Positions 1,916 to 23,609 of a stretch of 64,000 nt of DNA are shown here, piece by piece. The notes beneath the pieces were generated by a model, which searched no databases, had not been told where the DNA came from, and saw only the letters and a program-made list of their open reading frames with translations. Source of the stretch: a virus (lineage: Duplodnaviria; Caudoviricetes); the IMG/VR virus record IMGVR_UViG_3300024322_000001. One strand, given 5' to 3'. The first letter of the stretch is position 1. Every line of letters begins with the position of its first letter. A program made the translations under genes and the position numbers.

Positions 1916-1918
1916 ATA

Positions 1919-2215
1919 TTACTCAAATTTCATTCTAAATACGTTAATTGACATTCCTGATTCTTCTAGAGCTTCGTTAGTTGCCTTTACCATATTGTCT
2001 CCATATGTGTAAATTCCTTCTTCTCCTCCAGTTAGAACTCCTATGACTTCTCTCTCTTTGAACCCGATAGCACTTATAGTTCTTCCAAACTCTTCTGCAA
2101 TCAATGCTCGAACTGTTTTGATATCTTTAGTTTTTAGTAACGTAAAATACCGTTTAAAATAGAGGCGGCATTCTTCTAACGGCCACTCTTGATAATGATT
2201 TACTGCTTTTGACAT
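1919..2215 (-). CDS. hypothetical protein
   Basis: 98-aa ORF co-oriented with neighbours, preceded by a promoter-like motif at 2233-2263. Confidence 0.7.
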   Translation of the reverse strand: MSKAVNHYQEWPLEECRLYFKRYFTLLKTKDIKTVRALIAEEFGRTISAIGFKEREVIGVLTGGEEGIYTYGDNMVKATNEALEESGMSINVFRMKFE

Positions 2216-2241
2216 AACCTTTGTTTTATATTAATATACGA

Positions 2242-2829
2242 TTAATTTTCTTTTCTACCAAACATAAACGTGTTTATATTCTTTAATTCTGCTTCAATAT
2301 GATTTATTCCTGCTTTTCCACAACCAGATAAAGGGATTACGGTTAAATGTACTCTACCGCTATACCATTTTGAAAGTTTTAAACAAGTATTCTGGGCTTC
2401 AATTCCTAAAGTATTAGTAGATTTATATACATTTCTACCAATCAAATGTTGACCTATTCTCTGCTGTCCGTTACCTAATTTAGAACCAATATACATTACA
2501 TCGGCTACTGAATGGTTAATTCTTAAACCAGGAGTAGTACCAAATCCTTTTTTAATTACAGAATGATTTTCAATATCTTCTCTTGTAAGTTTATCTGCTG
2601 CTTCAAAGATATAAACAATAGGAGTTTTAGTACCTACCTTTTCTTCAAATCTATTATAAAATTTTATAAATTTTTCTGGGTTATCAGCTAGTTCTTTTGG
2701 ACTGATATACCTCCAATGTATGGGGTCGTATTTTAGACTTTCGCTATAAAGTCTAGATGCACGTTTCTTATCTTCATAAGCATTTTTTGCTTGTGCATCT
2801 GCTACTTCAATTGATAATTCTTTAATCAT
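2242..2829 (-). CDS. putative GIY-YIG-like nuclease
   Basis: IVYIF...VMYIGSK...RIGQH...IE spacing resembles the GIY-YIG motifs with the catalytic Arg and Glu. Confidence 0.45.
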   Translation of the reverse strand: MIKELSIEVADAQAKNAYEDKKRASRLYSESLKYDPIHWRYISPKELADNPEKFIKFYNRFEEKVGTKTPIVYIFEAADKLTREDIENHSVIKKGFGTTPGLRINHSVADVMYIGSKLGNGQQRIGQHLIGRNVYKSTNTLGIEAQNTCLKLSKWYSGRVHLTVIPLSGCGKAGINHIEAELKNINTFMFGRKEN

Positions 2830-2874
2830 ATAACCTTTATTTTCCCAATTATTTATATCTAAATATAAGAAATA

Positions 2875-3045
2875 TTATGCAGAAAACCAACTAATTAGTA
2901 TGTTAATTACTATAAAAAGGTTAGTTAAGACTGCTTGAATAACTATAAATGTTCTAAACCAAGCAATCTTATCCGCCTCTTTATTATCTCCTACTTTCTC
3001 TCCTAACGCTTTTGCCCAAAGTCGCCACCATTTAGTATTCGCCAT
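2875..3045 (-). CDS. small membrane protein (56 aa)
   Basis: Hand-translated MANTKWWRLWAKALGEKVGDNKEADKIAWFRTFIVIQAVLTNLFIVINILISWFSA; fills the gap between genes; hydrophobic C-terminus; below the ORF-track cutoff. Confidence 0.7.
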   Translation of the reverse strand: MANTKWWRLWAKALGEKVGDNKEADKIAWFRTFIVIQAVLTNLFIVINILISWFSA

Positions 3046-3304
3046 ATAAATCGAACTTCATGGGTTCTTCAGGTTCTACCTCTATTTCGTGCTTCTTAAC
3101 AGCATATAACTTTCCAGCCAAGGGAGCTAATCTGTATTCTCCTTTAAATTTAGTTTTTCTCATATACATTGTTAATGCCATTACTAAACCTTCTATAGTA
3201 GAGCCTTCATCGATAACTAGTTCCCAATTGTCTCCCGGTGGTACCCTCAAGGCAATGAGTTCGTTTTCTTCTTCTATTAATGTTTCAATTGCTTCTTTTG
3301 CCAT
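3032..3304 (-). CDS. hypothetical protein
   Basis: 90-aa ORF overlapping both neighbours. Confidence 0.65.
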   Translation of the reverse strand: MAKEAIETLIEEENELIALRVPPGDNWELVIDEGSTIEGLVMALTMYMRKTKFKGEYRLAPLAGKLYAVKKHEIEVEPEEPMKFDLYGEY

Positions 3305-3494
3305 TAAAATATTCTTTTAAAAATTCTTCTCTATACAACATTACTTTACCTTTATAAGCTTTATTGCTTACGAACCTAGTATTTACAGGTTCTTTTGCTG
3401 ATTTAGCAGCTTTATAAACTTCTTCTCCAAGCTTTATACCTGCTGCATATCCTAAATGATCGTATAAGGATACTGAAGCTTGTTCTTTTATCAT
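3285..3494 (-). CDS. hypothetical protein
   Basis: 69-aa ORF; its start overlaps the queF stop codon. Confidence 0.65.
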   Translation of the reverse strand: MIKEQASVSLYDHLGYAAGIKLGEEVYKAAKSAKEPVNTRFVSNKAYKGKVMLYREEFLKEYFNGKRSN

Positions 3495-4405
3495 TACTGT
3501 CTAAGAGTTTTAGAAATTCTAAAATCTGTGTCTGTAAAGAAATCTGGTATAAATCTCGAATGGGTAGCTCTAATAGGATTAATATCTAAACCACCTCTTC
3601 TAGTATATAGACAAGCAACCATTAAATCATCAGGTTTATACGCATCCATTAAATGCTTAAATACCATTTCACATATTTCCTCATGAAAATGGCTTACCGT
3701 TCTATGAGATACAATATACTTAGCTAACGAAGCTACATCAGGTACATCTCTACCGTTAATTCTTATAAATACATCTCCCCAATCTGGTTGATTAGTAACC
3801 CTACAGTTAGATCTAAGTAAATTTGATTTTAACTTAACCTCGATAGGATCGTCTGAGTTATCTTCAACTGTTAGTTGATCTGAATCTGATTTAAATGCGG
3901 TAAAGTCTATTTCATCTAAATCTACTATATCACCTAAATCTGTATATCCTTCAAAAGATAATTCTTTGCCATCATCTAAATCAGTGTAAAAACTCACAGT
4001 AGTATTAGTTTCAAGTAACTTATCTAAATCAGCTTTTACCCTTCCCTCAATCTCTAAAATACATTCTACAGCTGTATCTCCTAATCTAGTCATATTAAAA
4101 GAATTTAAATATAGCTTAATAGATTTAGATTCCACGTGATATTCAGAATCTGAAGGGCATACTATTTTTAACATACCTGCTACAGGTAATCCTTTACTAG
4201 TAATAGCCGAAACTTCGTAACAGTTCCAGGTATCTACTCCAACAAAGTCTTTATCTGTCAAACCGTAACCTTCTCTATTTAAGTATCGAGGTACTTTAAC
4301 TAATAATTCTGGAGCGTAGGTATCTTTATACCCGTCTCCTCCTACTTTTCCTAAATGTTTAGACGCTATGTCTACTACTTCTTGATAATTTTTAACTTCT
4401 GCCAT
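3494..4405 (-). CDS. queF: NADPH-dependent preQ0 reductase, bimodular (type II) QueF
   Basis: QueF motif ESKSIKLYLNSF, catalytic region LRSNCRVTNQPDWG, FHEEICE, YTRRGGLDINP. Confidence 0.95.
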   Translation of the reverse strand: MAEVKNYQEVVDIASKHLGKVGGDGYKDTYAPELLVKVPRYLNREGYGLTDKDFVGVDTWNCYEVSAITSKGLPVAGMLKIVCPSDSEYHVESKSIKLYLNSFNMTRLGDTAVECILEIEGRVKADLDKLLETNTTVSFYTDLDDGKELSFEGYTDLGDIVDLDEIDFTAFKSDSDQLTVEDNSDDPIEVKLKSNLLRSNCRVTNQPDWGDVFIRINGRDVPDVASLAKYIVSHRTVSHFHEEICEMVFKHLMDAYKPDDLMVACLYTRRGGLDINPIRATHSRFIPDFFTDTDFRISKTLRQ

Positions 4406-4410
4406 TTTTT

Positions 4411-5016
4411 TTATTCTTTAATATAATCAATCCAATTAGTTCCTTTTGTATCTCTATTAGGAAATACAAATTTTCGTTTAATATCGCCAATAGTAATAGT
4501 CTTAATAAAACTAGAAGGTACCGTAGCACCAGTTCTTAATACTTCTGACTCGTCTGTAAATACTAACTCCACTCTTACATGTATATCAGTATTAAAAAAT
4601 TTAGCTGCATCTCTTTCAAATGCTTCTAATCTACTCCACTGTCCCCTATTTAACCCTTCGTGCTGTAATGCAGAATTAAAGTAAGAAAACGTGCTTCGTA
4701 AGGATTCTTCAGTACAGCTAAAAGAAGCTGCAGGAGCAAGGTGTCCTTTATCCCAAATATTGTTTTTATAGTCCTCATTATCGGATGTATCATAACCTTC
4801 CGGAATCCAAAAATCCATTCCATGTCTAGATTCCTTACCGTTAGGGCAAGTTATAGTATACTCCACCCATAATGGCTGTTGTAGTTTTTGATCGTACTCT
4901 ACTTTAAATGTTTCAGTTTCTACTATCTGTGCATTTAACGTTGATGTTACAAATATTGTTATAAAAAATATTATTGCAAATAATAATAATTTTTCTGAAG
5001 ATTCTAATTTATTCAT
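4411..5016 (-). CDS. DNA/RNA non-specific endonuclease (NucA/EndoG family) with signal peptide
   Basis: WDKGHLAPAA (DRGH-like), NSALQHEGLNRGQWSRLE, VP motif; hydrophobic N-terminus ending LNA|Q. Confidence 0.9.
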   Translation of the reverse strand: MNKLESSEKLLLFAIIFFITIFVTSTLNAQIVETETFKVEYDQKLQQPLWVEYTITCPNGKESRHGMDFWIPEGYDTSDNEDYKNNIWDKGHLAPAASFSCTEESLRSTFSYFNSALQHEGLNRGQWSRLEAFERDAAKFFNTDIHVRVELVFTDESEVLRTGATVPSSFIKTITIGDIKRKFVFPNRDTKGTNWIDYIKE

Positions 5017-5531
5017 TTTATAAATTCCATTATTTGTTCTACTCTTTGCATAGGAGAACCAGTTATAGTGAGATAAGGCTGACGTACACCTTCTAACACT
5101 GCTTGAAACTCATCATCTACTTCTTTTCTCCATTCTTCACTTATACTTCTTACTCCATCATCTACAGAATCAAATTCAATAGGAAAGTAAATATAATGAG
5201 TATATTCATTTTTTACCCTATTCCAAGTATCTTCTATATAGCTGTAAGTATGTGAAGTTACTCCTTTCATAAACTTAGTATAAACTACCACATCCATATA
5301 ACATCTATCTAATACTAAGTTATAAGGTTGAAGTAAAGCTTCTAAATGAAAGCTACTAATAGCTAACTGAGTAGCACAAGTACCTTCTTCGTTGATAGGA
5401 AATCCATAACTACCAACAGTTCTAGTAGATTCGTTTACGAATTCATATTTAGGTAATTTATTTTTAAGTAGTTCATAAACAGTAGTCTTACCTGTACTAC
5501 TTGCTCCTACTAATGCTATTCTTGTTATCAT
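5013..5531 (-). CDS. P-loop nucleotide kinase-like protein (AAA_28/dNMP kinase-like)
   Basis: GASSTGKTT Walker A, LDRC, DDGVR; typical NMP/dNMP-kinase-like layout. Confidence 0.75.
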   Translation of the reverse strand: MITRIALVGASSTGKTTVYELLKNKLPKYEFVNESTRTVGSYGFPINEEGTCATQLAISSFHLEALLQPYNLVLDRCYMDVVVYTKFMKGVTSHTYSYIEDTWNRVKNEYTHYIYFPIEFDSVDDGVRSISEEWRKEVDDEFQAVLEGVRQPYLTITGSPMQRVEQIMEFIK

Positions 5532-5676
5532 AAAACCTATTTAATGTATTATACATACCTGCTATTCCAAAGTCAGCACCATATTTTTTATTTTGATCTA
5601 AAAAAAACATCATTAATCTTTGAAATGAATTACCTTCACTTTTTCTTACTAAATAAAATTCTTTATCTATATTCAT
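5497..5676 (-). CDS. hypothetical protein (59 aa)
   Basis: Hand-translated MNIDKEFYLVRKSEGNSFQRLMMFFLDQNKK...; fills the gap between dpdN and the kinase. Confidence 0.5.
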   Translation of the reverse strand: MNIDKEFYLVRKSEGNSFQRLMMFFLDQNKKYGADFGIAGMYNTLNRFYDNKNSISRSK

Positions 5677-5679
5677 TTT

Positions 5680-6222
5680 CTATAAAATTTGTCTCAAAAA
5701 ATTGCACCACATATACAAGCTTCTATCTCTTAATATACGAAATAAATCATCTAATTCCAACTGAAAAGTATTAAATTTTTCTTCAGCAATAATTCTTCCT
5801 TCATCAACCTCAGCTACTACTTTATGCAATACTGCACCTGCTGTAGGATATTTACCTTCTTTAATACCTTCGAAAGCTCTTACTTGAGGATCTTTACCTT
5901 TCAGTTCTGGATATTCAGTTATGAGCCCTGGATGCCCATTATAGATAAGGTATTTTCTACATATAGAAGGAGGCATAACTCTTAACCACCCGTGTAAAGT
6001 AACTAAAGCATTATCTTCTAACACTACATCATAATCCTCTACTGATGGTTTATTCGGCAGGAAAATAATATCCATATCGAGTAATTCATCATTTATTTTT
6101 CTTAAATGCTCAGGTCTTTGATTAGTAATTATTTTATCAGGCCATCTACCAAATGCCTTTGCTATATCTACTATTTCAGTCCCTGTCTGACTAAAGAATG
6201 CTATCCAAAGTTTGTCTCCCAT
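5680..6222 (-). CDS. dpdN: PurN-like formyltransferase, putative dPreQ1 formyltransferase DpdN
   Basis: FFSQTGTE (PurN SGxGSN equivalent), LHGWLRVM, NGHPGL (catalytic N/H), HKVVAEVDEG (catalytic D); adjacent to the DpdA-like gene. Confidence 0.8.
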   Translation of the reverse strand: MGDKLWIAFFSQTGTEIVDIAKAFGRWPDKIITNQRPEHLRKINDELLDMDIIFLPNKPSVEDYDVVLEDNALVTLHGWLRVMPPSICRKYLIYNGHPGLITEYPELKGKDPQVRAFEGIKEGKYPTAGAVLHKVVAEVDEGRIIAEEKFNTFQLELDDLFRILRDRSLYMWCNFLRQIL

Positions 6223-7018
6223 TTGTAAACCATCTAAATTTTTGTATATTATTTTTAATTGTACCTAATTGCTCTATTGATATATCAGAGTTAATAAGTT
6301 CATGTAATTTTTGTCTCTCTTTAGACCATAATCCGTCTGATCTATATGTTATATTTTTAATACCGTGAACTACAGGATTTGAAGTATCTAAAGAGTATAT
6401 CCAGTCGTAATCAGAGTGCTTATAAAAACTAAATTCTTGAGGAAGCCCACAGCCGAGGAGATGATGAGGTTTAGTTTGATTAATTACTCCATCTCTAAGT
6501 AAGTCTCCTAGTAGCTTAACACGTCCTAGCATCCAACTAACATACTTGTTAGCATGAGGAACTGACTGTGTGTAGTACGAGTAATCAAAAGAAATAGCTA
6601 TCATATCTACATCTGCTGATTTATTCATATAGTTGTAGCAATCTACAATTTCATCATAGGATTTACCTTGTACTACACCTATTTTACCGCTTCCCTTATA
6701 TCCATACCCTTTATTAATCCAATCCTCCATCTGATCGCATGTTTTTTGAGCATCTTCCAAAGCATCTGGAACTATATACCAGGAAGGTTTAAGTTCGTTA
6801 ACCCATCTATTAAATTTATCTGCATCGAAAGCTTCTTCTAATTCAAAAATAGAATTATCTAAAATAACCTCTCTACCTTTACTTACTGCTTTTTTAAATT
6901 GAGCCAAGTATTCTTCATCTTCTTCAAATAAATGTACTAAAGCGTAATCGTAGTCTGTATACTTTTGAACTTCATCAAAAATACTTTTAGGACTTTCGTG
7001 TGCAATTTTTATATTCAT
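6191..7018 (-). CDS. dpdA: TGT-fold 7-deazaguanine transglycosylase, DpdA3-like
   Basis: ILDNSIFE, IVPD, GVVQG, HHLLG and SLDTSNP match the TGT/DpdA barrel motifs; lies within the que cluster. Confidence 0.75.
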   Translation of the reverse strand: MNIKIAHESPKSIFDEVQKYTDYDYALVHLFEEDEEYLAQFKKAVSKGREVILDNSIFELEEAFDADKFNRWVNELKPSWYIVPDALEDAQKTCDQMEDWINKGYGYKGSGKIGVVQGKSYDEIVDCYNYMNKSADVDMIAISFDYSYYTQSVPHANKYVSWMLGRVKLLGDLLRDGVINQTKPHHLLGCGLPQEFSFYKHSDYDWIYSLDTSNPVVHGIKNITYRSDGLWSKERQKLHELINSDISIEQLGTIKNNIQKFRWFTNGRQTLDSIL

Positions 7019-7036
7019 ATAACTTATTTTTGATTT

Positions 7037-7237
7037 TTACTCTTTACCTTCCTTAAACGTATCGTCTAAAATATTTGAAATATATCTTACATAGCCGTCT
7101 AATTTATTCATTTCCGTATTAAGTTTTTTATCATACGTGAATACTTCTTTGACAGCCTGTTGAGCAATTTCTAGCGGCACATATTCTTTTCCGTCTACTG
7201 TTATAATGTAATCCTCTAAATTAGTACCCTTACTCAT
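7037..7237 (-). CDS. hypothetical protein
   Basis: 66-aa ORF within the operon. Confidence 0.6.
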   Translation of the reverse strand: MSKGTNLEDYIITVDGKEYVPLEIAQQAVKEVFTYDKKLNTEMNKLDGYVRYISNILDDTFKEGKE

Positions 7238-7733
7238 TGAAAAACTTTTTTAAATTAGGTCTAAAGTAATTAACTGATTTCATTACTTTTCTATCTCTTG
7301 TTCTGTATACAATATACAAGTCTTCTACTTTTTCATAATGACATTCTTCATTATAAGCTTTAGACCTGACGGCGACAGTTTCTTTTGCTTCTTCTTCAGT
7401 TTTACAAGCTTTAGACATATTAGAAGCCTGTACCTCTTGATATGCTGGCCATATCTTATCCTTAAGGCCGTGTAACATAGTACCGTTCCCAAGGGAAACA
7501 TAAGCAATGTCGCACAAAGCGTCCAAAACTTCAACGATGTCTCCGTTCTCACACGCTTCTCTATATTCTTCAAGCTCTTCGAGTATAAAGTCATATACGA
7601 ACTGCCACTCTTTCTTCTCTGGTATAGTCGGTTCATAGTTATTTGGTTTGCCAAATGTGGCATTAAATTCTTCTACTTCAGAAACAAATGGTACGTAATC
7701 TGTTTCTCGGAATAATGATAGTTGTTTACCCAT
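7230..7733 (-). CDS. MazG-like all-alpha NTP pyrophosphatase (DR2231/PRA-PH type)
   Basis: EELEEY, EVLDALCDIAYV and SNMSK motifs. Confidence 0.85.
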   Translation of the reverse strand: MGKQLSLFRETDYVPFVSEVEEFNATFGKPNNYEPTIPEKKEWQFVYDFILEELEEYREACENGDIVEVLDALCDIAYVSLGNGTMLHGLKDKIWPAYQEVQASNMSKACKTEEEAKETVAVRSKAYNEECHYEKVEDLYIVYRTRDRKVMKSVNYFRPNLKKFFNE

Positions 7734-8169
7734 TTTTACTCATTTTTTTCCACCAATCTGTTTTATTGATGAGTTGTTTTTCTTTTCTGTCTACTAAATC
7801 GTCTAAATGATCGTATATACCACGATCCCAATCGTCTTGATATCTAATGATATCATCTTCTCCGAAATAATCTCCGGTTTGCACTTCTATAAATTGTACT
7901 GGTTTATCAGTTTTATTCCAAGCTCTATGTTTACTGCAGCAAGGTATGGTTATAGATTCACCAGGATTATCTAGAGAGTATTCATCACCATCTCTAATGA
8001 CAGTTAACTCTCCACTTACTAGAGTCCATTGCTCTTGTCTCTTCTCATGAGACTGATAGGATAATCTCTTACCTGGAGCTACGGTGATTAGTTTAACTTT
8101 AGTAAAGTCAGTATCTAATAGTACATCGTAGCAACCCCAAGGTCTTTCATCGTGTTCTAATGATTGCAT
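7726..8169 (-). CDS. cupin, phosphomannose isomerase type II C-terminal-like
   Basis: ERPWGCY, LSYQSHEKRQEQW, IEVQTGDYFGEDDIIRYQDDW. Confidence 0.85.
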   Translation of the reverse strand: MQSLEHDERPWGCYDVLLDTDFTKVKLITVAPGKRLSYQSHEKRQEQWTLVSGELTVIRDGDEYSLDNPGESITIPCCSKHRAWNKTDKPVQFIEVQTGDYFGEDDIIRYQDDWDRGIYDHLDDLVDRKEKQLINKTDWWKKMSKNG

Positions 8170-8870
8170 TTCTCTGCTAATTCTATATTCTTATAAAACT
8201 CAGCTTTAGCTGATGGTTCATCTAAAAAGGCTCCAGTTAGTTTAGCTGTTTGCATTGATGCTCCTCCATGCTTAACTCCTCTACAGGAAACACAAGCGTG
8301 AGTTGCATTAACTTGAACTGCTACTCCTAAATTGCCTTCACATATCTTATCTACTGCATTATGTATAGCTACAGTTAACTGCTCTTGAATAGCTCCTCTT
8401 CTACCGAATTGTTCTACTATTCTATTTAGTTTAGATAGTCCTACTACCTTACCATCTTCTGAAGCTATATAAGCAATACTTACTGTGCCTCTAATAGCTT
8501 GATGATGATGCGAACACATAGACGTTACTGGTATGTTACTCTCTTGTACGATACCGTCATACCCGTCTGAAGGAAAAGCTGTAATCTTATCTAAAGGGCT
8601 ATATCTTCCAGCCCATAAATCGTTAACATATGCTTTAGCTACCCTAAATGGTGTATCTGCAGAGTTAGGATCTGCTGCATAATCACATCCTAAAGCGGTA
8701 AGGAACTCTGCATAAGCCTTTGCTGCTCTTTCTATAATTACTTGTTTTTCATGATCAGTAAGTCTTGCTTCTGGTCCTTCCAGCTTTTGTTTTTCTGCTA
8801 ATTGAGTTGAAATACCGTTAGCGAAACCGGCTTTTACTAATTCTGTTCCTTTTATAAACTTTTTTGGCAT
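8157..8870 (-). CDS. folE: GTP cyclohydrolase I
   Basis: TPFRVAKAY, SMCSHH, GLSKLNR, QEQLT, HACVSCRG. Confidence 0.96.
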   Translation of the reverse strand: MPKKFIKGTELVKAGFANGISTQLAEKQKLEGPEARLTDHEKQVIIERAAKAYAEFLTALGCDYAADPNSADTPFRVAKAYVNDLWAGRYSPLDKITAFPSDGYDGIVQESNIPVTSMCSHHHQAIRGTVSIAYIASEDGKVVGLSKLNRIVEQFGRRGAIQEQLTVAIHNAVDKICEGNLGVAVQVNATHACVSCRGVKHGGASMQTAKLTGAFLDEPSAKAEFYKNIELAEKCNH

Positions 8871-8878
8871 AATATAAT

Positions 8879-8908
8879 TTATGTTTTTATTGAGGTTCTA
8901 CGACTCAT
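8879..8908 (-). ncRNA. putative preQ1-I riboswitch aptamer in the folE leader
   Basis: A-UGAG-UCGUAGAAC-CUCA-AUAAAAACAUA: P1 stem, UCG..AG..AC loop and A-rich tail. Sits between the promoter and the folE AUG. Confidence 0.7.
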
Positions 8909-8919
8909 TACTATAACTT

Positions 8920-8950
8920 AATATAAGAACTTTTATTCATTAATCCAAAT
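8920..8950 (-). promoter_or_regulatory. Bacteroidota sigma-type promoter (TTG-N20-TATATT) upstream of folE
   Basis: ATTTG-N20-TATATT; the same 31-bp spacing recurs at about 11 other gene starts. Confidence 0.7.
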
Positions 8951-9359
8951 AATCTTGAATTGTTTTTGAATCTTTTTTCTCCCATGGGTACACGATCCAA
9001 TCAGTAGTTTCTAACCAATTGCAGTAGAAGTCTGGTTTTGTTACTGTAGTGTTTCTTACGTCTAATGTAGCTGTTGTGTATCCCTGTTTCTTAAAGTGTT
9101 TGAGGGTCTGTCCAGAGTCGGATATATCATCCACTATTAATATTTTTTTCTTATCTATATTAAGGTTAAACTCCTCTAACTTTTCTAGATGGTCTATAGT
9201 TATGTGCTTTATCCCCAGTTTATGAGACATAATGACTGCTACTACTAAACCTCCTCTCGGTATACCTACTACGTAATCTACATTTTTAATTTTATTTGCT
9301 AATTTTTCTACCTGGTGGTCTATATCGTTCCAGGTAACGAATACTTTTTTTGGAGTCAT
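8940..9359 (-). CDS. type I purine phosphoribosyltransferase (Gpt/Hpt-like)
   Basis: VVGIPRGGL, PRPP loop LIVDDISDSGQT, WIVYPWE. Confidence 0.9.
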   Translation of the reverse strand: MTPKKVFVTWNDIDHQVEKLANKIKNVDYVVGIPRGGLVVAVIMSHKLGIKHITIDHLEKLEEFNLNIDKKKILIVDDISDSGQTLKHFKKQGYTTATLDVRNTTVTKPDFYCNWLETTDWIVYPWEKKDSKTIQDYLD

Positions 9360-9362
9360 ATC

Positions 9363-9665
9363 TTACTTTAATATTAACGTTGATAAATGTACTATGTTAT
9401 ACTTAATTGCATAGTCAACAACTTCTTGTCCTGTTTCTTCACTTACGATTCTTATATCTTTGAAGTCAAGACCTTCTTCGTTAACATATTCTACTAATTC
9501 CCTAACAGTACAGCTATGATTTTCCAAGTTCATCAAATCTAAGGTCTGTATGGAGTCCATTGTAATTAATTCTAAGGTATTCCCAGATAGTTTATAATCC
9601 CAAATAGGACTATTTAAAAAGTACACCTTACGGTCTAAATCTTCTAAAATATTACTATAATTCAT
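9363..9665 (-). CDS. hypothetical protein
   Basis: 100-aa ORF within the operon. Confidence 0.6.
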   Translation of the reverse strand: MNYSNILEDLDRKVYFLNSPIWDYKLSGNTLELITMDSIQTLDLMNLENHSCTVRELVEYVNEEGLDFKDIRIVSEETGQEVVDYAIKYNIVHLSTLILK

Positions 9666-9789
9666 TTATAAAAATTTTTAGTTTATCTATTAATACTAGT
9701 ACATCGTCTGGTTCCATAGTAATAGCACAGCATGTATTAATATTTTCTTCTACTTCTTCTAATATCTCTAAAGCTTCGTCTTTAGTCAT
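9655..9789 (-). CDS. hypothetical protein (44 aa)
   Basis: Hand-translated MTKDEALEILEEVEENINTCCAITMEPDDVLVLIDKLKIFINEL; start overlaps the queE stop. Confidence 0.6.
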   Translation of the reverse strand: MTKDEALEILEEVEENINTCCAITMEPDDVLVLIDKLKIFINEL

Positions 9790-10577
9790 TATACTTCACG
9801 TTGATCTTCAAAAGCAATGATATGCGGTCTCCAAGTCATTCTATAACCATTATCTCTAACCCAATCAAATAATACCGGATAAGATTTAAATAATGCTTCC
9901 CTTGAATCTCCTGCAGGCATAAACCATACCTTACTTTTAGGTATTTTTAACCTGTAAATACAGGTCATTATTTCCTCTAAAGCTTTTTCATCTTTACCAT
10001 CCCATACAGGTTTTAAATGATAGTCAGAGTGGTAATTGATACTTTCTTCTATAGCATCATAATTAAGTCTAAACTTATTATGCTGCTTTATCATTCTTTC
10101 GTCAGTAATCCCTCCTTGAGGAGTCTCTACGCCAATGACTGGAACAGAATTAGAAAACTTAGGGCTAATAGATAGCAGATTAATAGGGTAATCTGTGGGT
10201 AGAAAGTGACTACCTTCAGTTTCGATAGTAATAAATATATTATTCTCATTTGCAAAGTGTGTTAATTCGTTTACCAAAGCTGGATGCATTGTAGGAGAAC
10301 CTCCTGTTAGCATCATTTCTTTAATATGGGGGTTATCTTTATACTTTTGTATAATATCGTTAAAATTAAATTGACCTTTTTCTGGATGGATTGAAGTATA
10401 CCAGCTATCACACCAGCCTCCTTCTCCAAAGTAACATCTATGGGTACAGCCAGTAGTTCTAATTACTATAGTTGGGTACCCTGCTCTTGAACCTTCTGAC
10501 TGTACTGCAGTATAAACTTCTACAATCGGTAAGTTCTTTTCGTAATCTTCTATTCTTTTTAATTGTTTATGCGACAT
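9789..10577 (-). CDS. queE: 7-carboxy-7-deazaguanine synthase (radical SAM)
   Basis: EVYTAVQSEG, RTTGC, CTHRC...WCD, TGGSP, ETEG, SISPK, RPH. Confidence 0.93.
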   Translation of the reverse strand: MSHKQLKRIEDYEKNLPIVEVYTAVQSEGSRAGYPTIVIRTTGCTHRCYFGEGGWCDSWYTSIHPEKGQFNFNDIIQKYKDNPHIKEMMLTGGSPTMHPALVNELTHFANENNIFITIETEGSHFLPTDYPINLLSISPKFSNSVPVIGVETPQGGITDERMIKQHNKFRLNYDAIEESINYHSDYHLKPVWDGKDEKALEEIMTCIYRLKIPKSKVWFMPAGDSREALFKSYPVLFDWVRDNGYRMTWRPHIIAFEDQREV

Positions 10578-11031
10578 AATAAGCTGCGTTTTTTCCGTGT
10601 TCCATAAATTTTACTTTCGTCACCTTAACTCTACCTTCTGTTTCTTCTTCTACAAAATCATTTAATTTATTAAAAATATATTCTGCAAATTTTTCTGCTC
10701 CGGTAGCAGGTATAACTCTGATTTGTGCTACTTCTGATAATCCCATATGTAGAAATTTATCTAAATAGGGGTCGTCCTGAGCAACTATGAAGGTATGGTC
10801 GAACATATAATCCATCCATTGCTTAGGAGATAAGCCATCTATTTTAGTCTTAGCTCTTTTCATACCTCCGAAGTCCCATACCCAGTTTCTGTAGTCTAAT
10901 TCTCCTTCAAAATATACTTTAAATGCTACTCCGTAGCCGTGAACAAACCTACAATGTGTATCTTCTGCTTTCCATTGACGGAACACAGTAGAGAACCCGT
11001 CGAATACTTTACTTGATTGAAATTTTCCCAT
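10567..11031 (-). CDS. queD: 6-carboxytetrahydropterin synthase
   Basis: HCRFVHGY, DFG, FDHT, GAEKFA, terminal E. Confidence 0.92.
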   Translation of the reverse strand: MGKFQSSKVFDGFSTVFRQWKAEDTHCRFVHGYGVAFKVYFEGELDYRNWVWDFGGMKRAKTKIDGLSPKQWMDYMFDHTFIVAQDDPYLDKFLHMGLSEVAQIRVIPATGAEKFAEYIFNKLNDFVEEETEGRVKVTKVKFMEHGKNAAYYVA

Positions 11032-11040
11032 ATCTTTAAT

Positions 11041-11274
11041 TTAAACTAATTCTTCCCCTATTCCAACTATTTCTGCTAAAAATAGACCTATAAAGCCTAA
11101 TTCAAACATACCAAAGAAGCCAAAAGCACATGCTCCTAGCCTAATAGCTGATTTTAAAAATGAAATTCTTTGGTGAAGTTTCGGATCAGGTATTTTCTGT
11201 CCGTCGATCTCAATAGAACCTTTTTGTTTTTTAAACTCCGTATCTTTATACAGAGTATTTGCTTTTTTACTCAT
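11041..11274 (-). CDS. small membrane protein, first gene of the queD-queE operon
   Basis: Two short hydrophobic segments (AIRLGACAFGFFG, LGFIGLFLAEIVG). Confidence 0.7.
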   Translation of the reverse strand: MSKKANTLYKDTEFKKQKGSIEIDGQKIPDPKLHQRISFLKSAIRLGACAFGFFGMFELGFIGLFLAEIVGIGEELV

Positions 11275-11276
11275 AT

Positions 11277-11306
11277 TGGTGTTTTTAAAGTGGTGCTACG
11301 ACACTA
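11277..11306 (-). ncRNA. putative preQ1-I riboswitch aptamer in the leader of the queD/queE operon
   Basis: U-AGUG-UCGUAGCAC-CACU-UUAAAAAC: nearly the same loop as the folE copy with a different, compensated stem. Confidence 0.65.
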
Positions 11307-11324
11307 TAGTCTTATATTACTTAT

Positions 11325-11355
11325 AATATAATAAAAAAAGGGATAGTAAGCAACT
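11325..11355 (-). promoter_or_regulatory. sigma-type promoter AGTTG-N20-TATATT
   Basis: Recurring bipartite motif; overlaps the upstream terminator. Confidence 0.65.
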
Positions 11356-11363
11356 ATCCCCTT
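11333..11363 (-). terminator. intrinsic terminator after fibre gene 11383..13131
   Basis: GGGATAGT-TGCTT-ACTATCCC hairpin followed by a T run on the minus strand. Confidence 0.8.
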
Positions 11364-11382
11364 AGTTTTTTTTAAATTATTT

Positions 11383-13131
11383 TTATGCTAGTAATGCTAA
11401 TAAAGAACCTGTAAAGTCATTGTAGTTTGTTGACCCTGTTAATGCAGCTCTTAATTTTGCTTTGCTAACATAATTTAATTCAATAGAAGCTGATGGTACA
11501 AATGTGTAAGCATCCTGCTCTAAATCGTGAATATCGTTATGATTTTCTGTCCACGATTGTGCTATAGAAGCAGACAGCATTGTAAATGAACCTGTAATGT
11601 CAGCTTTTAAAGCGTATGAACTTGTTGCTGCTAATAGTCCTAGTTGCGAACCAGATAATGCAGCTATATCGTCATTGTTGTTACTTACATCGGTTTGTAG
11701 AATTGCTATGTCATCTACATTGGCAGTAGTCACGACTGCAAAAGATGCTGAAACTGCATCTAGCTGTGCATCAGTAGCATACTCACTATCTATAGAGGAA
11801 CTAAAACTTTCTAAGCTTATAATTCTAGCATCTAAAGAAGCTGTAGCTGTATATAATTCATCTTCAGAAGCATATATATTATCAAATGAAGAACTAAAGT
11901 TTAATAGATGTGCTGTTTCTAAAGCAAGTGATGAAGACACACTATCTAGTTGTGCGTCTGTAGCATAATAGTTGTCTAAAGAAGAACTAAAGTGATCTAA
12001 TCTAGCTATAGATTCCGAGACATTGCTATATCCTGCTATCGATAATTGACCAGATTCTGCTTTAATATTTCTAATTGTGACAATGTCATTATCTGCTGAT
12101 ATTTTGCCAGTGGTATTTATATCATCAGAAGCATATATAGTACCGGTTACCGCGATTCCATTAGTAGTAGTTGAGAATTTTTTAGCATTATCATAATAAA
12201 GCTCAATAGGACCATCTTTTGTAAACTTAGCAAAAGTTTCTCCCAATTGTCCTGATTTGATTTCAACTTCATTATCTGAAACTATTAATAGATCTCCAGA
12301 TCCTTTTTCCTGTATATGTGAATTTCCAGCTACATCTGAGAATATATCTAGTTTGCTATCTATTGCAATTTTTCTACCTGCTGTGGCAAGTATTATATCT
12401 CCATTGGATACTGTTACTGTACCTTCTTGATCAAGAGTACCAATTCTAGTATAGTCTCCTTTTTGACCAGTATCTCCATTGTGATCTATATCACCAAGTA
12501 AAAAAGTACTACCTGTAATTGATAAATCTCCTTTAAATTTACTATCTGCATTTACATAGAAAGGATAGTCAGCTTCTTCTTTTAGATTTGCTCCTAATTT
12601 AAATCTACTTGAAGAAGGATGGTTAATCTGTATTCCTGCATATCTGGTAGGAATACCAGATTCTACTTTATAGTAGTCTTCTAATTTAATATGTTCTCCA
12701 TTACCACCAGCTACTCCATCTCTTCCTGCTTCAGAGATACTAAATTTATTATTATAAAAAGTAGTATAGTTTACGTTTGAAGACGTAGTTTCTGCTGCTA
12801 ATTGAAGACCGTGTAAACCTTCTGTATCAGTCGGTAGTACCTCTAACAATCCTCCTCCGTTAACTCCCTTTTGAAGATTTATATCGTCTCCTAGAGTTAT
12901 AGATTTATTAGAATCTAATCCTCCACTAACAAATACTGAACCTGTGAAGTTATGTAGATCATCTGCAGAATCTCCAAACAGAGTAGAACCTGATCTGTAG
13001 ATGATTGATGTTTGTACTTTTTCCGTTATAAATTGTTCTGCAGTTACATCTCCTGTAACTATCAGACTGCCGGATAGACTTACTATCTGTCCGCTTATCG
13101 GTTTAATGCTATTTACTCTAATTCTACTCAT
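11383..13131 (-). CDS. putative virion fibre/structural protein
   Basis: SIIYRSGSTLFGDSADDLHNFTGS motif, VELYYDN-like knob (IELYYDNAKKF), C-terminal YATDAQL coiled-coil repeats; late-type motif upstream. Confidence 0.65.
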   Translation of the reverse strand: MSRIRVNSIKPISGQIVSLSGSLIVTGDVTAEQFITEKVQTSIIYRSGSTLFGDSADDLHNFTGSVFVSGGLDSNKSITLGDDINLQKGVNGGGLLEVLPTDTEGLHGLQLAAETTSSNVNYTTFYNNKFSISEAGRDGVAGGNGEHIKLEDYYKVESGIPTRYAGIQINHPSSSRFKLGANLKEEADYPFYVNADSKFKGDLSITGSTFLLGDIDHNGDTGQKGDYTRIGTLDQEGTVTVSNGDIILATAGRKIAIDSKLDIFSDVAGNSHIQEKGSGDLLIVSDNEVEIKSGQLGETFAKFTKDGPIELYYDNAKKFSTTTNGIAVTGTIYASDDINTTGKISADNDIVTIRNIKAESGQLSIAGYSNVSESIARLDHFSSSLDNYYATDAQLDSVSSSLALETAHLLNFSSSFDNIYASEDELYTATASLDARIISLESFSSSIDSEYATDAQLDAVSASFAVVTTANVDDIAILQTDVSNNNDDIAALSGSQLGLLAATSSYALKADITGSFTMLSASIAQSWTENHNDIHDLEQDAYTFVPSASIELNYVSKAKLRAALTGSTNYNDFTGSLLALLA

Positions 13132-13149
13132 CTTATATAAATATGTCTA

Positions 13150-14589: not shown

Positions 14590-14660
14590 GTATACACTTA
14601 TATTGTATAAATAGCTGAATAATCTGATTTAGTAGTGATTTATTAATCAGTAAAATTTAG

Positions 14661-14734
14661 TGGAGAATATCGGAGTCGAACCGATGACCTCCTGCGTGCA
14701 AGGCAGGCGCTCTAGCCAGCTGAGCTAATCCCCC
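14661..14734 (-). tRNA. tRNA-Ala(UGC), CCA not encoded
   Basis: GGGGGATTAGCTCAGCTGGCTAGAGCGCCTGCCTTGCACGCAGGAGGTCATCGGTTCGACTCCGATATTCTCCA; cloverleaf, TGC anticodon, G3:U70 Ala identity pair. Confidence 0.96.
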
Positions 14735-14740
14735 TACCTG

Positions 14741-14884
14741 TTAAATAGTTCGGTTTCTTCTTGCACCGTCCCAGTACACTTTTCTTGACTTGCCTAACAT
14801 AGCATATCTACTTACTCTCTGATTAACTTTTGCTCTTTCAGAGTTTAGTTGGGTGTTTCCATTGTTTGAATCTTGTGATTGCAT
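14741..14884 (-). CDS. small basic hypothetical protein (47 aa)
   Basis: Hand-translated MQSQDSNNGNTQLNSERAKVNQRVSRYAMLGKSRKVYWDGARRNRTI. Confidence 0.5.
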   Translation of the reverse strand: MQSQDSNNGNTQLNSERAKVNQRVSRYAMLGKSRKVYWDGARRNRTI

Positions 14885-14910
14885 TACTGACTTATTGGTT
14901 AAACATTAAT

Positions 14911-15699
14911 TTATACATAGTCAGCAAGTACTTTTTCAACATGAGTTTTTGCTACTTCGTAATCAACCACTCCAGTTTCATCCTCATACTGTACAGGATC
15001 TTTTCTCCCCAAAGCAATAAAAGCCTCAATCCTCTCAACACTAGAAGCAGACTTATAATCGGAATTTCCACTAGGATAGGGTTTGTACGATGTATTAGTT
15101 CTCTTATAAACTTCATCAAAATCAATACCTAAAATTTCACATAATTTTTCTCCATCTTGTAGAATACCAAATTTATCAGTATCTAAATAAGGTGTAAAGT
15201 AACCTACTCTATCTGCATCCCAGTTTCCAATTCTAAAAGCTGCATCATCTGCATCTCTAAATTCTTGTCTACAATCAGGATAAACTGCATGATCACCAGC
15301 ATGAATACCTAAAGCAATATCACAAACGTCTTCTGTTCTATTTGCTACAGATAATGCAACTGCTTGAGTAATTGAAGCAAACATTTTGTTTCTATTAGGA
15401 ACAACTGTTTCTTTCATATTATCTTGCTCATAATGTCCTTCTGGTACATCATCCCCACCTGTAACTAAAGCTGAGTCTAATAAATCTACTAGACCATCAA
15501 GTTTAATTTGACGATAATTTATTTTGTGTCCTTTACTTGCAAGGTAATCAATTAATGATTGAGCTCTCTCTAGCTCTACTCTGTGTTTTTGACCGTAATC
15601 AAATGAGATACCAGTTACGGTATCATACTTCTCGATAGCTCTTAACAATAGGGTGCTACTATCCATTCCACCACTTAAACTTACTACACAATGTGCCAT
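14911..15699 (-). CDS. queC: 7-cyano-7-deazaguanine synthase (Zn-binding Cys motif absent)
   Basis: SLSGGMDS PP-loop, FDYGQKH, VPNRN, YPDCR. Confidence 0.95.
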   Translation of the reverse strand: MAHCVVSLSGGMDSSTLLLRAIEKYDTVTGISFDYGQKHRVELERAQSLIDYLASKGHKINYRQIKLDGLVDLLDSALVTGGDDVPEGHYEQDNMKETVVPNRNKMFASITQAVALSVANRTEDVCDIALGIHAGDHAVYPDCRQEFRDADDAAFRIGNWDADRVGYFTPYLDTDKFGILQDGEKLCEILGIDFDEVYKRTNTSYKPYPSGNSDYKSASSVERIEAFIALGRKDPVQYEDETGVVDYEVAKTHVEKVLADYV

Positions 15700-15752
15700 A
15701 ATTTACTTATTTAATTTTTGCCAGGTATTTTGCGTATAGGCTAACGCTTTTA

Positions 15753-16049
15753 TTATTCCATTATTGAAGTTATCTTTGTCTGAATAGTTTTAAACTCCTC
15801 AACATATTCTTTAATAGAGTTATATTCCTTACTTTTGTTTAGCAGTTCTTCTGCTGCTTTTTTTAGAGCATTAGTAAAATTAGACGGGTAACAAATAGTT
15901 TTAATATACTCTGTGTCGTTATCCCCTTTAATTACTCTTTCAAATAAGGTGTATCCGCCTGTGTTAGAACGTGAAATAAAAAAAGGTTCTAGTGCTGGAT
16001 CGGTAATGACCGTATCCGAGCTTGGAATTGAATCTGGTTTTCTTAACAT
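15753..16049 (-). CDS. hypothetical protein
   Basis: 98-aa co-oriented ORF. Confidence 0.65.
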   Translation of the reverse strand: MLRKPDSIPSSDTVITDPALEPFFISRSNTGGYTLFERVIKGDNDTEYIKTICYPSNFTNALKKAAEELLNKSKEYNSIKEYVEEFKTIQTKITSIME

Positions 16050-16053
16050 AACT

Positions 16054-16311: not shown

Positions 16312-16442
16312 CTTACTCCTTTAGATTTATAGTGTTTAGCTTTAGAAAATTTGGTTTGTTTCTTACTGTTAGATTTTTGATTCAACGTACCTAACCATTC
16401 CATAATTTGAATATAACGTTGCTTATTAGATGTTTTGGACAT
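16308..16442 (-). CDS. small basic hypothetical protein (44 aa)
   Basis: Hand-translated MSKTSNKQRYIQIMEWLG...; ATGA overlap with trxA; promoter at 16460-16490. Confidence 0.55.
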   Translation of the reverse strand: MSKTSNKQRYIQIMEWLGTLNQKSNSKKQTKFSKAKHYKSKGVR

Positions 16443-16506
16443 ATCTTATTCTTTATTATAATATACGAATAATAAATGTTATTTCCAACTATACACTAAT
16501 TTTTTT

Positions 16507-21896: not shown

Positions 21897-23609
21897 TTAG
21901 CCATCACAGGATAAGCAATCCTCAGATGTCCTAGAACCTATATCTCCATTAATTACCGAATCGGTTCGCAAGTAATAGAGTGTTTTTACACCGAATCTCC
22001 ATGCTGCTTGGTGTACTTCATTAATAAACTTTGGGCTATCTGTTGGATCAAATGCTAAATTTAATGACTGTGTTTGGTCAATGTATTTCTGCCTTGCTCC
22101 TGCTTGTTCAACTAAAGCCAATTGATTTATTTCTGCAAATGTAAGGAATATAGGTTTATCTTCTGCAGGCATTATGTCTTCGGGTAAATTTGCTATAGAA
22201 CCTCTATCTCTCATAATCTGGTCCCATACTTCATCAGTATTTGATCCTGTTTCGTCTAAATAACTCTCTAACGCAGGGTTTTTTCTTATAAAAGTTCCTT
22301 TTGCAGAGTTAAATGTATATATGTTAGCCGGTACTGGTTCGATTCCTGCGGATACCCCTCCTGATATCGTACTATTGGATACTGTTGGGGCGATAGCAAG
22401 TAAATGACTGTTTCTCATGCCTGTTCCTTTACACCATAGCGGCTCACCGTATTCATCTGCTAATTTACGTGATGCATTTTCTGCTTTTTGTTTTATATCG
22501 GAGAATATCTGGTGAGTAAATGAGGTTGCAGCAATAGAATTAAAAGGAACTCTTTCGTTCTGTAAAAATGTATGCCATCCTAGTACTCCTAACCCGATTG
22601 CTCTTCCTTTTTTTGCTGATCTATGAGATCTGATTAAAGAATCCCTTCCAGATGTTTTTGCTAAAAACTCTTCTAGTACTCCGTCCAGAAAATAAATGGC
22701 TGTTTCTACTAAATCTGTATTTTTCCATTCATGCCATTTAGTTAAGTTTACAGAAGATAGACAACATATGAAAGAATGTTCTTCATCTGTGTGAAGCGTA
22801 ATTTCTGAGCATATATTAGTCATCGTAACGTCTAAGTTATTCTTTTTATATGCAGGAGGATTAGCATTATTGACAGTATCCTTGAACATAAGGTATGGTT
22901 CTCCTGTTTCAACTCTAGATTTAAGTATTTTCACCCATAGTTCCATAGCCTCAGGGTCTCTATGCTCTAATTTTTGCATAAAGGCATCATCCACTACAAC
23001 ACATTGATGTAAGTTAAGACACTGTCTATTAGGATCTCCTTTAGGTCTTCTTATCTCTAAATATTCCGAAATATCTGGATGATTTATATCTAAATTAACA
23101 GAAGCTGCTCCTCTCCTCACAGCTCCTTGGTTAGTAGCTATAATAGTAGAATCATAAATCTTAGCCCAAGGAACAATACCCTCTGACTGACCTACTTCAT
23201 TACCGATTTTTTCTCCTCTACCTCTAACCTTAGATAGACCAATACCTACACCACCGCCTAAGGATGTCAATCTCATTAATTCAGCATTAGTTAATCCAAT
23301 ACCGCGTATCGAGTCGGGTGTATCGATACCAAAACATGAAATTGGCAATCCTTTGTCAGTGCCGGTATTTGAAAGTACCGGTGAGGCTAAGTTCAACCAT
23401 CCTTTCCACATATACCTAAAGAATTTATTCTCTAGATCTGGACGGTCTAATCTTTTTGCTATAGTAGAAGCTACTCTTCTATATGCAGATTTTACGTTTT
23501 CTCCTTGTCCTAAGTATCCTTTAGATATTGTTGCTATTGATACTTCATTCATCCATTCTGGGTAATCTTTTCCGGCTACCCATTCAGTTGTGTCCACTAT
23601 TAAACTCAT
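21897..23609 (-). CDS. nrdA: ribonucleotide reductase class I alpha subunit (no ATP cone)
   Basis: ISCF, TNICSEI, ICCLSS, APT, KTLYY, C-terminal CLSC. Confidence 0.97.
   Translation of the reverse strand: MSLIVDTTEWVAGKDYPEWMNEVSIATISKGYLGQGENVKSAYRRVASTIAKRLDRPDLENKFFRYMWKGWLNLASPVLSNTGTDKGLPISCFGIDTPDSIRGIGLTNAELMRLTSLGGGVGIGLSKVRGRGEKIGNEVGQSEGIVPWAKIYDSTIIATNQGAVRRGAASVNLDINHPDISEYLEIRRPKGDPNRQCLNLHQCVVVDDAFMQKLEHRDPEAMELWVKILKSRVETGEPYLMFKDTVNNANPPAYKKNNLDVTMTNICSEITLHTDEEHSFICCLSSVNLTKWHEWKNTDLVETAIYFLDGVLEEFLAKTSGRDSLIRSHRSAKKGRAIGLGVLGWHTFLQNERVPFNSIAATSFTHQIFSDIKQKAENASRKLADEYGEPLWCKGTGMRNSHLLAIAPTVSNSTISGGVSAGIEPVPANIYTFNSAKGTFIRKNPALESYLDETGSNTDEVWDQIMRDRGSIANLPEDIMPAEDKPIFLTFAEINQLALVEQAGARQKYIDQTQSLNLAFDPTDSPKFINEVHQAAWRFGVKTLYYLRTDSVINGDIGSRTSEDCLSCDG

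Follow-up and report, generated by a model that had tools for sequence, protein, structure and literature searches.

Phosphoribosyltransferase, kinase, and MazG-like pyrophosphatase genes as candidate accessory parts of DpdA3-type 7-deazaguanine systems in phages

Introduction

In the DNA of Flavobacterium phage immuto, all guanines are replaced by formyl-preQ1 (PMC10516641). The DpdA subgroup that has been tied to complete replacement in immuto, CP220, and phiST is DpdA3, whereas other DpdA enzymes give only 0.1-30% replacement, and an attempt to obtain DpdA3 activity in E. coli failed (PMC10516641). Here, we analyze a 64,000-nt stretch of DNA (the window) from IMG/VR virus record IMGVR_UViG_3300024322_000001 (G000 below), a 116-kb contig with an estimated completeness of 70%. 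Judging from its protein sequences, the window comes from a relative of immuto, and every guanine in the DNA of this phage is probably swapped for a modified 7-deazaguanine. Its minus-strand run of que, dpdA3, and dpdN genes includes intact genes for a Gpt-like phosphoribosyltransferase (PRTase; the window protein and its viral family are called PRT), a P-loop kinase (Kin), and a MazG-like pyrophosphatase. We propose, with a probability of about 0.45 for the combined reading, that these three genes belong to the DpdA3-type system as conserved accessories and form a purine-nucleotide side branch rather than being passengers, with PRT recycling the guanine expelled by DpdA3 to GTP for FolE and Kin marking a mononucleotide or nucleoside step before polymerization.

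The cluster of immuto is collinear with that of the window in the order QueD-QueE-PRT-FolE-MazG-like-o66-DpdA3-DpdN-kinase, where o66 is a conserved small protein. Identities between the two are 75% for DpdA3, 78% for FolE, 83% for QueE, and 80% for the MazG-like protein, but only 43% for PRT, and the window, unlike immuto, has an added cupin gene.

More distant parallels exist outside the 7-deazaguanine phages. The T4 hydroxymethylcytosine pathway consists of the dCTPase/dUTPase gp56, the dCMP hydroxymethylase gp42, the dNMP kinase gp1, and the polymerase gp43. As in the window, a dNTP pyrophosphatase is combined with a base-altering enzyme, a dedicated kinase, and a phage polymerase where one base is fully replaced. 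Unlike in T4, the base-altering enzyme of the window is a TGT-fold transglycosylase, which is not known to act on mononucleotides, and the kinase is RNK/deoxynucleoside-kinase-like rather than gp1-like, although phiST and MaInes do use gp1-like kinases (DNMK). T4 also has no known PRTase or recycling arm. The Z-genome (2-aminoadenine) module of PurZ, MazZ, DatZ, and DpoZ likewise joins an all-alpha NTP pyrophosphatase and a polymerase to a base-replacement enzyme and achieves complete replacement (PMC8342488, PMC8065100). In contrast to that module, an HD-type dNTPase was not found in the 116-kb record, and the pyrophosphatase slot of window-type clusters can hold a dUTPase-fold protein. Finally, the tubercidin and toyocamycin clusters encode a type I PRTase (TubE/ToyH) with FolE, QueD, and QueE, but they have no nucleic-acid insertion enzyme and make free nucleosides (PMC6112128), whereas window-type clusters always have DpdA3. 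By description, the Gpt-like, loop-less PRT of the window is set apart from TubE/ToyH.

The system itself, with DpdA3, DpdN, and fdPreQ1, has already been published (PMC10516641). What is new here is the conserved PRT/kinase/pyrophosphatase accessory set and its recycling and pre-replicative logic, which that paper does not discuss; neither "phosphoribosyl" nor "kinase" occurs in its main text, and our literature search found no work linking DpdA to a phosphoribosyltransferase.

Results and Discussion

PRT occurs almost exclusively with DpdA3 and is linked to FolE

We surveyed the distribution of PRT by tblastn of 50,697 phage records, using the window, MaInes, and CP220 proteins as queries. 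The family is present in all four cultured DpdA3 lineages, namely immuto (4 records), phiST-like Cellulophaga phages (5 records), the Brevundimonas phages MaInes and StAshley (2 records), and Firehammervirus (15 records, all of them found). Among the 233 records with a 9g-type DpdA (DpdA1/2), none has PRT, and PRT was likewise not found in Fletchervirus, whose members are Campylobacter phages that use deoxyinosine and lack DpdA. The search also matched two records of uncultured fecal phages and two very short fragments, probably of host gpt. The association of PRT with DpdA3 has a Fisher p of about 1e-12 or lower. In CP220, the gene lies at 163869-164282, where it is detected by tblastn and by the family hidden Markov model (HMM) but missed by the PF00156 profile.

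The second association of PRT is with FolE. At least 503 IMG/VR contigs encode a PRT relative, and FolE is present in the locus for 76 of 93 distinct IMG/VR PRTs. The gap between the two genes is shorter than 400 nt in 68 of these 76 loci, with a median of 4 nt. FolE comes first in 41 loci and PRT in 35, and at least four cluster arrangements occur. In MaInes, a DpdA3-like gene adjoins the polymerase and is followed by genes for ribonucleotide reductase, a DNMK kinase, FolE, and PRT. PRT is thus a near-exclusive companion of DpdA3 that is coupled to FolE. The first-pass annotation had suggested that PRT might activate preQ1 directly or, alternatively, might return guanine through GTP to FolE; the nearly perfect tracking of dpdA3 across four cultured lineages, as against 0 of 233 DpdA1/2 records, together with the adjacency to folE, favors the recycling alternative.

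The window PRT matches the Pfam family Pribosyltran (PF00156) at 5.6e-11, and its best PDB matches are the archaeal purine PRTase 1vdm (1.2e-14), Sulfolobus GpT-1/2, and E. coli xanthine-guanine PRTase (XGPRT). The top NCBIfam match is the xanthine PRTase NF006613, which at 52 bits against a 138-bit cut-off is below equivalog level. The phosphoribosyl pyrophosphate (PRPP) motif VDDISDSGQT and the RGG sequence align to 1vdm, 4trb, and XGPRT and are invariant in 38 family members, and the family alignment conserves RGG, DDxxD, T, and a W...PWE hood. This C-terminal hood, DWIVYPWE in the window, aligns with KWIVFPWE of 1vdm, with W121 and P125 invariant. In its fold, PRPP motif, RGG loop, and W-I/V-x-x-P-W hood, PRT therefore resembles E. 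coli Gpt (XGPRT) and the archaeal purine PRTases (1vdm, 4trb, 4z1o, 1a95). A basic pocket residue is Arg in the clade of the window and Lys in most other members, and an Asp two residues on from the PRPP motif is invariant. By analogy with XGPRT and HGPRT, the aromatic hood residue would stack on the base and the basic residue would read O6, and the Asp presumably contacts N7, as in 6-oxopurine PRTases. PRPP motif, Asp, basic residue, and hood are conserved in QueF, QueC-only, and phiST-type clusters alike, which fits one common substrate.

The window PRT differs from E. coli Gpt and the archaeal enzymes in its length of 139 aa, in belonging to a viral family tied to folE, and in the deletion of the flexible catalytic loop, which shows as about 13-17 missing residues when the protein is aligned with 1vdm, 4trb, and 4z1o. 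The loop is missing in most viral members and is kept in phiST and MaInes.

Three loci show PRT in other surroundings. A human fecal phage (MT835497; L192) encodes a family member at 5884-6522 (HMM E 2e-28), and no que or dpdA gene was detected in the 18.5 kb fetched. In L038 (1450-4050), PRT is followed by a glycosyltransferase-like gene and then by a gene for a 412-aa TGT-family protein (PF01702); in L044 (1444-4201), PRT is again followed by a glycosyltransferase-like gene, and the next open reading frames (ORFs) match those of L038 in size. Here, members of the PRT family seem to occur in a DpdA-type setting of another kind.

A nucleoside/nucleotide kinase accompanies DpdA3 in distant phages

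In the IMG/VR loci that were collected with DpdA3 as the seed, the core block is DpdA3-DpdN-Kin-QueF, and Kin is present in 43 of the 46 well-flanked loci, which are those with at least 6 kb on either side. Two loci (L154 and L157) have the block as DpdA3-Kin-QueF without DpdN, and contigs from metagenome-assembled genome bins labelled Spirochaetia, Bacilli, and Rhodobacteraceae repeat the DpdA3/Kin block. The pairing extends to CP220, where Kin (gp057; 27% identity over the full length) directly follows DpdA3 (gp056), and the 14 Campylobacter phage records with a Kin homologue all belong to the CP220 (Firehammervirus) group that carries DpdA3. In the other cluster types, Kin is encoded elsewhere in five of five near-complete genomes. 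Thus, even in phages that are evolutionarily far apart, DpdA3 is accompanied by a nucleoside/nucleotide kinase.

Kin matches AAA_28 (1.5e-17) and phrog_2107, "thymidylate kinase" (1e-24). Its family profile retrieves NadR RNK domains first, then deoxynucleoside kinases, and then thymidylate kinases (9x6f at 6e-7; also 1lw7, 8puu, and 2jas). An AlphaFold2 (AF2) model with a confidence score (pLDDT) of 91 gives Foldseek TM scores of 0.73-0.79 to the NadR RNK domain and 0.76 to deoxyguanosine kinase and also matches thymidylate kinase. Conserved residues are G9, G14, K15, and T17 of the P-loop, D75-R76 of the DR substrate motif, and R128. By its predicted fold, Kin is a small-molecule nucleoside/nucleotide kinase. 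The earlier description of this gene as dNMP-kinase-like was right about the P-loop kinase, but a T4 gp1-type dNMP kinase (DNMK, PF21448) is ruled out by the match to AAA_28 rather than DNMK, and the resemblance is instead to NadR-RNK and deoxynucleoside kinases. In place of Kin, phiST and MaInes have non-orthologous kinases of the gp1-like DNMK type; that of phiST, which scores under the Pfam cut-off, adjoins PRT, and that of MaInes adjoins FolE-PRT. When the complex of DpdA3 with Kin was predicted, the median score was 0.40, and one control scored 0.60.

Kin homologues also occur in another setting. In Streptomyces phage Karimac (L088, 7607-9621), the homologue is translationally coupled to an FkbM-type methyltransferase, and the pair is preceded by a weak SLOG/YpsA-like protein in a genome that lacks FolE. 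This pair of the Streptomyces BE phages may be a different nucleotide-level modification module.

The MazG-like pyrophosphatase alternates with a dUTPase-fold protein, often in the same slot

The MazG-like protein matches PRA-PH/all-alpha NTP pyrophosphatases (1.3e-11), with PF01503 at 45.2 bits against a 21.3-bit cut-off, and phrog_671 at 8e-30. The metal ligands EExxE...DAxxD are intact, with E52, E53, E56, D71, and D75 invariant in the family, whose members are 61-82% identical where PRT and DpdA3 drop to about 35%. When kinship to the (d)GTP-specific MazZ of Z-genome phages was considered, a search of the PDB with the family profile gave nothing better than E 0.1, and no sequence relationship to solved chains was detectable beyond a generic MazG-related protein at E 0.22. 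In the ESM Atlas, the family returned only a generic viral PRA-PH annotation.

Some NTP-pyrophosphatase-type gene is present in 41 of the 46 well-flanked DpdA3 loci, but its identity varies. Among 163 loci, 73 have the MazG-like gene, 33 have a dUTPase-fold (DCD-like) gene whose best NCBIfam match is an archaeal-type dUTPase, and none has both; the two genes often occupy the same position in the cluster. A search for the trimeric dUTPase PF00692 found none in immuto, in phiST, or in G000, which is 70% complete. CP220 and MaInes, in contrast, encode a PF00692 protein but no PRA-PH/MazG-like one. In L154, a small canonical MazG and a dUTPase lie side by side between FolE and DpdA3. The caveat of the first-pass annotation that the MazG-like protein could simply be a dUTPase therefore holds, given the mutual exclusion, the shared slot, and a homologue in PTm1 where FolE is lacking. 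On present sequence comparisons, an ordinary dUTPase role is plausible and as likely as a dGTP-directed one.

DpdA3, DpdN, and the phage polymerases

The DpdA3 of the window is 42% identical to that of CP220, and the DpdA3 profile reaches the bacterial DpdA 7ui4. Its AF2 model (pLDDT 95) has the TGT fold, and the motifs DN, PD, VQG, HLLG, and DTSNP are invariant, with catalytic Asp positions D54, D85, and D211. The barrel is minimal, stopping about 64 residues past the nucleophile, and the alignments show no invariant Cys position; the large Ins8 insertion that bacterial DpdA carries is therefore mostly absent. The bacterial Dpd system also combines a DpdA-family transglycosylase with an NTP-using partner, DpdB, but this partner, a ParB-like ATPase, acts with DNA (PMC10164549), whereas Kin has a nucleoside/nucleotide-kinase fold with a DR motif of the substrate type. 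The sequence and modeled fold of DpdA3 do not tell DNA and nucleotide substrates apart. We considered net charge as a sign that DpdA3 does not bind DNA (family median -10, pI 5.3) and dropped it because the DNA-acting DpdA of 9g is also at -8. In DpdN, the N-terminal loop has an invariant GSE where PurN has GSN, which is suggestive of a changed phosphate site, but this does not separate free base, nucleotide, and DNA as substrates.

Directly upstream of DpdA3 in CP220, gp055 (L084:10862-11893) is an HD phosphohydrolase fused to an AAA_33 kinase. It may be a dNTP-handling enzyme, but we did not use it as evidence for a dGTPase, since an HD-Pnk end-healing enzyme is equally possible.

The run of genes in the window was said to end at a PolA with altered motifs. 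The full protein is 803 aa long (L176:110-2521), and its motifs A, B, and C are DYESLE, KAYSLGIAYG, and HDQ; SLGIAYG stands at motif B where NFGxxYG is usual, and HDQ at motif C where HDE is usual. The motifs are thus indeed unusual, but the gene runs off the window and any link of the motifs to the modification is hypothetical. Across the loci, PolA is the polymerase of type 1 clusters and PolB, which is often split, that of types 2-4; no locus has both (39 versus 49 loci).

Proposed roles of the accessory genes and alternative explanations

In the combined reading that we prefer, the loop-less PRTase would capture the guanine expelled by each DpdA3 exchange and convert it to GMP, which would pass through GTP to FolE, so that each expelled guanine feeds the synthesis of the next deazaguanine. 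This is the simplest role for PRT because a guanine-type enzyme adjoins the first enzyme of the pathway, which consumes GTP, and since guanine flux matters only at complete replacement, it would explain the absence of PRT from DpdA1/2 phages. DpdA3 would exchange the base, at least in part, on a mononucleotide or nucleoside drawn from the dGTP/dGMP pool. Kin would then re-phosphorylate the modified product for incorporation by the phage polymerase, and the NTP-pyrophosphatase slot would supply dNMP and remove a competing dNTP, be it dGTP or merely dUTP. A mononucleotide or nucleoside stage is suggested by the combination of kinase, pyrophosphatase, and polymerase, which resembles that of gp56, gp42, and gp1 in T4, given that exchange on finished DNA needs no dedicated small-molecule kinase.

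A stronger form of this proposal is that DNA transglycosylation is not the activity, or not the sole activity, of DpdA3 and that this enzyme provides the first pre-replicative route to 7-deazaguanine genomes, in which dGTP is cut to dGMP or deoxyguanosine, the guanine is swapped, Kin re-phosphorylates the product, the polymerase incorporates it, and the PRTase returns guanine to GTP. We put this form forward tentatively and consider it to be short of an even chance. The central claim of the first-pass annotation was that a modified dNTP is polymerized while dGTP is destroyed, and we infer that this may be so. The nucleotide-level step that it implies gains from the position of Kin beside DpdA3, DpdN, and QueF and beside the DpdA3 of CP220, and it loses from the presence of the Kin family in about 90 Streptomyces BE phages that have neither FolE nor DpdA.

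Several other observations weigh against the combined reading. Catalysis by type I PRTases normally involves a flexible loop that is absent from the viral PRT family. In cluster types 2-4, Kin sits among unrelated genes (DUF6884, terminase, and metallopeptidase-like), and in the window a nuclease gene adjoins Kin, which would permit a generic scavenging role. The mutual exclusion of MazG-like and dUTPase-fold genes, their shared slot, and their complementary distribution across genomes count in the same direction, as does PTm1, whose MazG-like homologue is 32% identical and whose genome has no FolE. The TGT/DpdA family is not known to act on mononucleotides. All characterized members act on polymer (PMC10164549).

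This last point also speaks for the main alternative, in which DpdA3 replaces guanine in DNA post- or co-replicatively and the three genes are supply and housekeeping enzymes for a very large flux. PRT would then salvage guanine to GMP and GTP for FolE, Kin would be a general (d)NMP or nucleoside kinase feeding on host DNA degraded by the adjacent nuclease, and the MazG-like protein would be the phage dUTPase; we regard this set of roles, taken jointly, as a serious contender, although we would not bet on it. The adjacency of PRT and FolE is equally expected under this alternative, MazG-like and dUTPase-fold genes substitute for and complement one another from genome to genome, the Kin gene overlaps that of Endonuclease_NS, phages that lack the pathway have members of the Kin family and of the MazG-like family, and DpdA3 commonly adjoins a DNA polymerase, which would suit action at the replication fork. 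What post-replicative exchange leaves unexplained is why Kin is locked between DpdA3/DpdN and QueF and lies beside a CP220 DpdA3 that is 42% identical to that of the window, while DpdA1/2 clusters such as that of 9g lack such a kinase; indeed, PRT, Kin, and the MazG-like gene are all missing from the DpdA1 cluster of 9g. Moreover, the base-exchange DpdAs with demonstrated action on DNA do not go beyond about 30% replacement (PMC10516641).

PRT could instead act on the modified base itself, as in a ToyH/TubE-like route in which the PRTase couples PRPP with a finished base (7-carboxy-7-deazaguanine [CDG], preQ0, or preQ1), the resulting ribonucleotide is turned by kinases and the phage ribonucleotide reductase into a dNTP that is polymerized, and DpdA3 merely polishes residual guanine. 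PRTases are fast enzymes, PRT is universal in DpdA3 phages, and it lies near a ribonucleotide reductase and a kinase in phiST and MaInes, all of which suits this route. However, PRT is tied to FolE, the first enzyme, rather than to QueC, QueF, or DpdL, which make the final base, and its base-pocket residues are the same in clusters expected to make different C7 substituents. The invariant Asp, with its presumed N7 contact, also argues against this route, and the universal DpdA3 would become largely redundant. The phage PRT is Gpt-like, whereas TubE (194 aa) probably has more in common with Hpt-type purine PRTases. Although TubE, which is encoded within a FolE/QueD/QueE cluster, is proven to be a CDG:PRPP phosphoribosyltransferase (PMC6112128), on balance we find this route improbable for PRT. 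The explanation that the modification and the three genes are functionally unrelated and that the cluster merely lies inside a replication and nucleotide-metabolism module is already disfavored, and we give it very little credence. It would account for the polymerase, nuclease, and other replication genes that adjoin the cluster and for the MazG-like and Kin homologues of phages that lack the pathway. It does not account for a PRT family that is essentially limited to DpdA3 phages in the phage records searched and keeps its adjacency to FolE through repeated rearrangements, or for a DpdA3-Kin pairing that is maintained between Bacteroidota-type and Campylobacter phages.

The three-gene set narrows the question of how replacement becomes complete to a few enzyme assays. 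If the nucleotide-level route is true, it would be a new activity of the TGT superfamily and an enzymatic route to 7-deaza-dGTP analogues; if the recycling loop alone is true, it would still be an unreported feature of DpdA3 clusters.

Organization of the gene cluster in the window

All genes in the first 24 kb of the window are carried on the minus strand (Table 1). The three ORFs that the first-pass annotation had singled out are present where it placed them, and the neighbors that it named, QueC, QueD, QueE, FolE, DpdA3, the PurN-like DpdN, and QueF, are borne out.

Table 1. Features of the deazaguanine gene cluster and its surroundings in the window
Feature	Position	Strand	Basis or remark
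Family-A DNA polymerase, N-terminal 638 aa	2..1915	-	gene continues past window start
QueF (preQ0 to preQ1)	3494..4405	-	library scan
Endonuclease_NS, non-specific DNA/RNA endonuclease	4411..5016	-	4.3e-27; 4-nt overlap with kinase stop
Kin, RNK/deoxynucleoside-kinase-like P-loop kinase, 172 aa	5013..5531	-	AAA_28, phrog_2107, fold
59-aa ORF between DpdN and kinase	5497..5676	-	no matches in related loci
DpdN, PurN-like formyltransferase	5680..6222	-	family scans; Hutinet 2023, PMC10516641
DpdA3, minimal TGT-fold transglycosylase	6191..7018	-	kinship to immuto/CP220, fold model
o66, conserved 66-aa protein between MazG-like gene and DpdA3	7037..7237	-	no family assigned
MazG-like all-alpha NTP pyrophosphatase (PRA-PH), 167 aa	7230..7733	-	PF01503, phrog_671
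Cupin / ManC C-terminal-like, optional cluster member	7726..8169	-	PF01050, 2.7e-27
FolE, GTP cyclohydrolase I, first step of 7-deazaguanine synthesis	8157..8870	-	PF01227, 1.2e-41
PRT, loop-less Gpt-like PRTase, 139 aa; last gene of queD-queE unit, directly upstream of folE	8940..9359	-	
o100, 100-aa protein between QueE and PRT	9363..9665	-	no family; part of clade only
QueE	9789..10577	-	83% identity to immuto QueE
QueD	10567..11031	-	library scan and immuto comparison
o77, conserved 77-aa protein	11041..11274	-	clusters of several gene orders
QueC	14911..15699	-	library scan
Ribonucleotide reductase large subunit	21897..23609	-	G000 44585-45955 = window 21969-23339; nucleotide-supply context

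The co-transcription of these genes that had been claimed is consistent with the single strand and the overlapping or abutting ORFs, and no strong terminator was found between 11330 and 3494. However, it is inferred only, and the intergenic gaps at 8871-8939 and 9666-9788 point to a division into two or three transcription units. A scan for sigma-70 promoters was uninformative for a Bacteroidota-type phage, giving fewer sites than in shuffled sequence. An Rfam scan of window positions 1-16500 (E<=1) returned tRNA only, and the preQ1 riboswitch model had no match.

Three small proteins without an assigned family recur in related clusters to differing degrees. In the well-flanked DpdA3 loci, o66 is found in 28 of 46, always between the MazG-like gene and DpdA3, and o100 in 11 of 46; o77 is found in 35 of 83 loci collected with PRT as the seed. 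Endonuclease_NS recurs at the same position, or beside PRT, in several related loci. The cupin gene matches strongly to the C-terminal domain of mannose-1-phosphate guanylyltransferase/isomerase, and most related clusters lack it.

The queD unit and queC are separated in the window by two tail-fibre-like genes (11383-13131 and 13150-14589) and a tRNA (14661-14734), unlike in immuto, where the corresponding interval holds about 10 kb of other genes. Some related clusters carry additional genes, encoding a 2-oxoglutarate-Fe(II) oxygenase, an NAD-dependent epimerase/dehydratase, or a UDP-glucose dehydrogenase-like protein with a TylF-type methyltransferase (L048:6558-7262; L045:7176-8051; L122:6327-7597), which hint at a further, undescribed elaboration of the deazaguanine.

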